From sequence record NC_049942.1: a stretch of DNA of 57,198 nucleotides, one strand, 5' to 3'. Shown here piece by piece: positions 14,475 through 15,413 of the stretch. The notes beneath the pieces are model-generated. The model saw only the letters and a list, made by a program, of their open reading frames with translations, was not told the origin of the DNA and did not search any database. The first letter of the stretch is position 1, and each line of letters begins with the position of its first letter. The DNA comes from Escherichia phage JLK-2012. The position numbers and the translations under genes are program-made.

Positions 14475-15413
14475 ATGACAAATACAGCAAAAATACTCAA
14501 CTTCGGCAGAGGTAACTTTGCCGAACAGGAGCGTAATGTGGCAGATCTCGATGATGGTTACGCCAGACTATCAAATATGCTGCTTGAGGCTTATTCAGGC
14601 GCAGATCTGACCAAGCGACAGTTTAAAGTGCTGCTTGCCATTCTGCGTAAAACCTATGGGTGGAATAAACCAATGGACAGAATCACCGATTCTCAACTTA
14701 GCGAGATTACAAAGTTACCCGTCAAACGGTGCAATGAAGCCAAGTTAGAACTCGTCAGAATGAATATTATCAAGCAGCAAGGCGGCATGTTTGGACCAAA
14801 TAAAAACACCTCAGAATGGTGCATCCCTCAAAACGAGGGAGGTTCCCCTAAAATGAGGGACATCCCTCAAAACGAGGGAAAATCCCCTAAAACGAGGGAT
14901 AAAACATCCCTCAAATTAGGGGATTGCTATCCCTCAAAACAGGGGGACACAAAAGACACTATTACAAAAGAAAAAAGAAAAGATTATTCGTCCGAGAATT
15001 CTGGCGAATCCTCTGACCAGCCAGAAAACGATCTTTCTGTGGTTAAACCGGATGCTGCAATTCAGAGCGGCAGCAAGTGGGGAACAGCAGAAGACCTGAC
15101 CGCCGCAGAGTGGATGTTTGACATGGTGAAGACCATCGCACCATCAGCCAGAAAACCGAATTTTGCAGGGTGGGCTAACGATATCCGCCTGATGCGTGAA
15201 CGTGACGGACGTAACCACCGCGACATGTGCGTGCTGTTCCGCTGGGCATGCCAGGACAACTTCTGGTCCGGTAACGTGCTAAGTCCGGCCAAACTCCGCG
15301 ACAAGTGGACCCAACTCGAAATCAACCGTAACAAGCAACAGGCTGGCGTGACCGCTGGAAAACCAAAACTCGACCTGACAAACACTGACTGGATTTACGG
15401 GGTGGATTTATGA
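14475..15413 (+). CDS. O: Replication initiator O
   Basis: 312 aa MTNTAKILNFGRGNFAEQERNVADLDDGYARLSNMLLEAYSGADLTKRQFKVLLAILRK... near-identical to lambda O, with a 13-aa in-frame insertion in the iteron region. Confidence 0.95.
   Translation: MTNTAKILNFGRGNFAEQERNVADLDDGYARLSNMLLEAYSGADLTKRQFKVLLAILRKTYGWNKPMDRITDSQLSEITKLPVKRCNEAKLELVRMNIIKQQGGMFGPNKNTSEWCIPQNEGGSPKMRDIPQNEGKSPKTRDKTSLKLGDCYPSKQGDTKDTITKEKRKDYSSENSGESSDQPENDLSVVKPDAAIQSGSKWGTAEDLTAAEWMFDMVKTIAPSARKPNFAGWANDIRLMRERDGRNHRDMCVLFRWACQDNFWSGNVLSPAKLRDKWTQLEINRNKQQAGVTAGKPKLDLTNTDWIYGVDL
14820..14990 (+). repeat. Origin of replication: six ~19-bp iterons (ATCCCTCAAAACGAGGGA-type) followed by an AT-rich segment, inside the O gene
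   Basis: Direct repeats of TCCCTCAAAACGAGGGA / TCCCCTAAAA(C/T)GAGGGA read directly from the sequence; lambda has four. Confidence 0.85.

Follow-up and report, generated by a model that had tools for sequence, protein, structure and literature searches.

Here we describe the replication origin of a lambdoid prophage, which lies in a 57,198-nt stretch of DNA from Escherichia phage JLK-2012 (sequence record NC_049942.1). We call this whole stretch the window, and all positions are those of the window unless another record is named. Our analysis leaves us almost certain that the region inside gene O (14475-15413, plus strand) is the theta-replication origin of this prophage, embedded in the gene of its own initiator, and that its six-iteron form is the one usual in the 933W / H-19B / P27 group of Shiga toxin (Stx) phages. 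That is, the origin is the standard type of the Stx-phage group, which is already known and already annotated, and it is no peculiarity of the window. The anatomy of the origin, its identity with that of 933W, its distribution, and the structure of its duplication come from our own analysis, and the data on binding, footprints and mutant phenotypes come from the literature. By analogy, we infer that this prophage's copy of the origin functions.

Gene O encodes a replication initiator of 312 amino acids (RefSeq WP_000185479.1, replication protein), and the Phage_rep_O DNA-binding domain (Pfam PF04492) occupies residues 22-115 of it (E=3.9e-35). Six 18-nt iterons of the O-binding type were found at 14823-14946, all on the plus strand and all within this single open reading frame (ORF). 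A preliminary description, made from the sequence only, had placed a six-iteron array at 14820-14950 inside O, and its coordinates were accurate. In order, the array consists of iteron 1 (14823-14840; '1/1''', distal, in the naming of Kozlowska et al.; ATCCCTCAAAACGAGGGA), iteron 1' (14843-14860; TTCCCCTAAAATGAGGGA), which is a diverged copy of iteron 2, iteron 1'' (14862-14879; ATCCCTCAAAACGAGGGA, the same as iteron 1 and functionally ITN1 of lambda), iteron 2 (14882-14899; ATCCCCTAAAACGAGGGA; ITN2), iteron 3* (14906-14923; ATCCCTCAAATTAGGGGA; ITN3 with G changed to A at 14918), and iteron 4 (14929-14946; ATCCCTCAAAACAGGGGG; ITN4). Iterons 2 and 4 do not differ from those of lambda. The start-to-start spacing is 20, 19, 20, 24, and 23 nt, that is, about two helical turns, and direct reading of the sequences showed that each iteron is an imperfect inverted repeat. 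When the consensus ATCCCTCAAAACGAGGGA was searched for with at most 3 mismatches, 4 matches were obtained in the window, every one of them in the O array. The number expected by chance was 0.07, and four matches were reached in none of 100 shuffles. With up to 4 mismatches, all six iterons were recovered, and no further match appeared on either strand of the 57 kb.

The iterons encode residues 117-158 of O, right behind the Phage_rep_O domain. The repeats are in frame and yield a repeated peptide: iteron 1 encodes IPQNEG, iteron 1' encodes GSPKMRD, and the peptide EGGSPKMRDIPQNEG is found at residues 121-135. It could therefore be supposed that the repeats matter only as a peptide repeat of O (IPQNEG / xSPKxRD) and that the repeat in the DNA is a by-product. 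However, the codon phases of the iterons are 0, 2, 0, 2, 2, and 1, that is, three different phases, and iterons 1/1'', 1'/2, 3, and 4 each give a different peptide. Iterons 3 and 4 encode unrelated peptides and yet keep the DNA consensus. Thus, it seems to be the DNA, rather than a peptide repeat, that is under constraint. The inverted-repeat structure of every unit also speaks against the supposition, as does the published direct binding of O to such sequences (PMC7466680), and we give it hardly any credence. Of the residues that the iterons encode, 83% are polar, charged, Pro or Gly; from such a composition one would expect this stretch of O to be a flexible segment between domains. When the PDB was searched with the sequence of O, no solved structure matched.

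Directly after iteron 4 there is an AT-rich tract of 44 nt (14947-14990, plus strand), which encodes residues 158-172 of O. Its A+T content is 75%, and 70% of the top-strand bases are purines. We predict that this tract is the unwinding site. It equals the lambda tract base for base, and the first mismatch beyond it occurs at 14993. Gene P (15410-16111, plus strand) encodes the DnaB helicase loader, the partner of O (PF06992 Phage_lambda_P, E=1.5e-61; RefSeq replication protein P), and the reading frames of O and P, which are encoded together, overlap. The region therefore shows the features of a lambda-type origin, namely an origin in O after the DNA-binding domain, an iteron array, an AT-rich tract of about 40 bp, and O together with P. 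At the other end of gene O, a 33-bp box (ACTGGATCAATCCACAGGAGTCATTATGACAAA, 14450-14482) spans the O start and matches the pO / oop 5' region, which has been described as conserved across lambdoid phages (Hayes et al. 2012, PMC3349717). From this match, an OOP-like antisense RNA against the end of cII is likely in the window, too.

We then compared O with lambda O. The lambda reference was J02459 (O, 38686-39585; ori, 39034-39160), a record that annotates ori iterons 1-4. The alignment contained a single gap of 39 nt (13 codons) and 22 substitutions in 900 nt, and the DNA identity outside the insertion was 97.6%. Only three amino acids were changed, namely G17E, I112T, and S282G in lambda numbering. 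The preliminary description had stated that O is otherwise near-identical to lambda O and that an extra iteron pair gives an in-frame insertion of 13 residues, and the alignment bears out both statements. The extra unit (14822-14860, plus strand) is identical at 35 of its 39 positions to the adjoining 14861-14899, and it thus looks like a tandem copy of the iteron 1-iteron 2 (ITN1-ITN2) unit that has diverged since. The 4 differences are three spacer bases and one iteron base. Because the first and third iterons are identical, every placement of the insertion between 14822-14860 and 14841-14879 fits equally well, an ambiguity that Kozlowska et al. also discussed (PMC7466680). The reading frame is kept because 39 nt are exactly 13 codons, and the insertion lengthens O by 13 residues within the polar segment that immediately follows its DNA-binding domain. 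As for its origin, these data allow either a gain in the Stx lineage or a loss in lambda.

A 39-nt near-tandem repeat invites the suspicion of an assembly or sequencing artefact, that is, a false duplication of a short tandem repeat, and draft assemblies do hold four-iteron versions on almost identical O backgrounds. The preliminary description had itself raised this possibility, but our results exclude it for practical purposes, and we assign it next to no chance. The extra copy is inexact, with 4 of its 39 positions unlike those of its neighbour, and assembly stutter would not yield such differences. Moreover, 39 nt is shorter than any sequencing read, and the ORF remains open. The same diverged copy is present in the independently determined sequences of 933W, H-19B, VT1-Sakai, and BP-4795, and it is found widely in phage records and E. 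coli genomes, as shown by a 44-nt junction query (14831-14874) that spans iteron 1' and can find no match in four-iteron origins. The coverage of a 101-nt query had failed to separate the two classes, because two pieces of four-iteron origins were joined to "100% coverage", and the junction query was used instead. The junction was found in 70 phage records, all with at least 99% identity, and in 362 of 5426 complete E. coli genomes (about 7%), where it occupied 570 places with at most 4 per genome. The junction phage records, among the matches listed, were all named Stx-converting or known from toxin-producing strains (for example, 933W, VT1-Sakai, and BP-4795). When the full O gene was used as the query, 169 phage records matched, 31 of them at 99% or more, and the best matches were 933W, Stx2 phage I, P22, P32, PA28, and many Stx1a phages.

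The closest known relatives of the origin and O of the window are 933W, H-19B, VT1-Sakai, P27, P22, P32, and BP-4795. In 933W (AF125520), the six-iteron array and the AT-rich tract are the same as those of the window base for base, O is also 312 amino acids long, and the neighbours cI, cro, cII, O, P, and ren are the same. The two O genes aligned without a gap at 99.6% DNA identity. The 4 differences in 939 nt were two synonymous changes, I37L, and I112T (I37 and I112 in 933W O, L37 and T112 in the window O), and none of them was in the iterons or the AT-rich tract. The GenBank record of 933W lists six protein-O binding sites, 'ori iteron 1' to 'ori iteron 6', which map exactly onto the six iterons of the window; iterons 1 and 1' correspond to its 'ori iteron 1' and 'ori iteron 2'.

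The function of such origins has been studied by Kozlowska et al. (2020; PMC7466680). They described Stx phage origins as possessing six iterons (1, 1', 1'', 2, 3*, 4) versus four in lambda, an O protein with 13 more residues, and an iteron 3 with one base different. In their experiments, the O proteins of lambda, P27, and 933W were each able to bind every iteron singly. When the template carried the complete array of six, electrophoretic mobility shift assays and dimethyl sulfate footprints revealed efficient protection only of the four iterons beside the AT-rich tract; binding to iteron 1' and to the outermost one was weak, and the O proteins of Stx phages bound more weakly than lambda O. 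Mutation of iteron 1 or 1' in a P27-derived plasmid reduced transformation to below detection (Table 2 of that paper). According to the authors' proposal, the distal iterons either concentrate O locally or make the O-some more stable, which would serve the lower-affinity Stx-type O. O binding and replication support were published for the origin regions of P27 and 933W (PMC7466680), and the 933W array is that of the window.

If the lambda pathway holds for the window copy, O dimers would attach to the 18-19-bp iterons, which are imperfect palindromes, and would form an O-some by wrapping the DNA, thereby straining and opening the adjoining AT-rich tract at 14947-14990. O would then recruit the P-DnaB complex, and replication would start when host chaperones freed DnaB. 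The strongly occupied core would be the four AT-side iterons (14862-14946), equivalent to lambda ITN1-4, and the two distal iterons (14823-14860) would bind O weakly.

In many plasmid iteron systems, extra iterons lower the copy number. On that model, the two distal iterons might be thought to act mainly negatively, that is, to titrate O or to pair origins so that initiations become fewer, and not to support initiation. Their weak occupancy in vitro and the less efficient binding of Stx origins than of lambda's would fit such a role (PMC7466680). However, in the P27-derived plasmid, a mutated iteron 1 or 1' did not raise the copy number but put an end to transformation (PMC7466680). Likewise, the listed junction carriers, being Stx-converting phages or phages from toxin-producing strains, fit vigorous lytic replication. 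We therefore consider a mainly negative role to be quite improbable. The preliminary description had also suggested that iteron number can affect origin strength and O binding, and this idea has already been put to the test in the literature. The distal pair is weakly bound, yet iterons 1 and 1' are needed for the establishment of a plasmid derived from an Stx phage, so that the effect is not simply that of a stronger origin (PMC7466680).

Nothing in the sequence speaks against our reading of the region as a six-iteron origin, but four caveats apply to it. First, the role of the distal iterons rests on a single plasmid system (p27). Second, the O allele of the window, with L37 as in lambda and the rarer I112T, differs from the alleles assayed in the literature. 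Third, a single-sequence AlphaFold2 model of O was poor (mean predicted local distance difference test score, pLDDT, 40; predicted template modelling score, pTM, 0.24) and gave nothing firm on the inserted residues. Finally, as the prophage looks defective, productive firing of the origin in this host may be rare or absent. An IS3-family element (8254-9467), with an ALIL frameshift pseudoknot at 9070-9186, is inserted in the early left operon; the portal gene (35122-37706) is frameshifted; and the tail tip gene (46543-50016) has an internal stop. With these three lesions, the prophage is probably defective. A truncated 'regulator' pseudogene (9984-10052) lies next to the IS3-family insertion.

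To see how the six-iteron form relates to the four-iteron form, we surveyed the iteron number in the 80 best IMG/VR loci encoding O relatives. Six iterons were present in 40 loci and four in the other 40, and no other count was obtained. One locus (L006) had been taken for a five-iteron locus; it really has six, and an extra substitution in its iteron 1' had exceeded the mismatch limit. For a comparison of backgrounds, 83 O genes were aligned with MAFFT, the indel columns being excluded and one gene whose ORF is cut by a contig end (L042) being ignored. Outside the indel columns, the four-iteron locus L044 showed 0 differences from 933W O, the four-iteron L061 showed 0 differences from the six-iteron L027, and the four-iteron L043 showed 1 difference from the window O. 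The positions recorded for the four-iteron cases are those of L043, L044, L061 (iterons near 1849-1933), and L085 (583-1482).

A similar mixture was seen in a complete genome, that of strain 95_0274, whose array consists of four iterons, among them the Stx-type iteron 3*; its O equals 933W O across nt 118-710 and diverges in the last third. The linkage between the base in iteron 3 and the iteron number was also imperfect, as 2 six-iteron loci had G and 3 four-iteron loci had A. Some four-iteron O genes thus match or nearly match six-iteron ones outside the 39 bp, which suggests that the 39-bp unit has been lost, gained or recombined repeatedly on several O backgrounds, part of the four-iteron loci being draft assemblies. 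This repeated change is a minor point that, as far as we found, is absent from Kozlowska et al. 2020 (PMC7466680). One might go further and regard the iteron number as a polymorphism that switches recurrently between 4 and 6 rather than as a fixed lineage mark, all the more as prophages without stx, such as the present one, also have the six-iteron form, but we consider this to be rather unlikely. If the unit were lost and regained by slippage or by recombination between the identical iterons 1 and 1'', prophages could tune their origin behaviour, induction yield, and toxin output.

The prophage that carries the origin adjoins mlrA (yehV, 1-702), and its integrase gene is at 723-2009. The window was 100% identical to the genome of E. 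coli O55:H7 strain DEC5E (NZ_CP038383.1, 1885391-1942588) across the compared 14 kb (8000-22000). The gene order is int, xis, exo, bet, gam, kil, cIII, stk, cI, cro, cII, O, P, ren, nin genes, antirepressors, Q, three tRNAs, lysis, head, and long-tail genes. The early region is 933W-like, and the head and long-tail genes are lambda-like. In toxin phages, stx follows Q and the tRNAs. The RefSeq annotation of the window lists no stx gene, and the interval between Q with the tRNAs and the lysis genes (23311-24800) contains a TerB-family gene (23804-24235) and a DUF3927 gene (24232-24396). The presence of a six-iteron origin in a prophage without stx indicates that toxin-carrying phages are not the only ones with this origin type, and the number of junction places in E. 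coli genomes also points beyond the toxin phages.

Some further features of the prophage were observed. A match to the Rfam small RNA STnc100 (24462-24634, 107 bits) lies near the TerB-family and DUF3927 genes. The three tRNA genes after Q (23402-23635) are Asn, Thr, and Gly according to RefSeq and Rfam; ARAGORN gave the outer two and missed the one at 23482-23557. The Rfam lambda cIII thermoregulator element (7505-7563, minus strand, 84 bits) is located at the start of cIII. At 18472-18670, Rfam matches were obtained for isrK (18485-18559), the C4 antisense RNA (18586-18670), and its a1/b1 targets (18472-18524), and downstream of them there are a truncated ORF6N gene, two Arc-family genes, and two antirepressor genes (19839-21559). 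The region 18472-21559 is a P1/P7-like antisense-controlled antirepressor module within the nin region. Past the tail fibre genes are a DUF1076 gene (52445-53020), two large minus-strand hypothetical genes (53352-54593 and 55244-56452), and then a DinI-like gene; the genes at 52445-56452 may be prophage cargo.

When induced Stx-type prophages replicate, their toxin genes are amplified, and the origin has hence been studied as a possible intervention point (PMC7466680). In this context, our result is mainly a correct annotation, that is, a standard six-iteron lambda-type origin in a prophage lacking stx, and it brings no new biology. The six-iteron type is widespread in complete E. coli genomes, many of which have more than one copy, and it is not bound to the presence of toxin genes. 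What we add to the earlier study (PMC7466680) is two small points, namely the stx-less and probably defective carrier and the seemingly recurrent gain or loss of the 39-bp unit.

Compared with lambda, the window shares the position of the origin inside O, unchanged iterons 1, 2, and 4, an unchanged AT-rich tract, and P as the partner. In contrast, lambda has four iterons, without iteron 1', and an O of 299 amino acids, whereas the window has the extra 39-nt unit with iterons 1 and 1', the G-to-A change in iteron 3, and three amino acid changes in O. These features of the array, namely the 39-nt insertion with six iterons and iteron 3* (A at 14918 versus G in lambda), are those of the Stx group. 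The O substitutions of that group are Gly17Glu, Leu37Ile, and, in 933W, Ser282Gly; the window O possesses G17E and S282G, keeps Leu37 as in lambda, and adds I112T. The carriers also differ: the Stx-group phages carry stx, which is an association rather than a trait of the origin itself, whereas the carrier of the window has no annotated stx, has lambda-like long-tail genes, and lies beside mlrA in an O55:H7 strain.

A more general likeness, one of layout, exists with the iteron origins of the plasmids F, P1, RK2, and pSC101, in which repeated initiator sites stand beside an AT-rich unwinding element, as they do in the window. In these plasmids, the iterons are located outside the initiator gene and also control the copy number through the pairing of origins. 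In the window, by contrast, the origin is located inside the coding sequence of its initiator, and control works through transcription from pR and the turnover of O.
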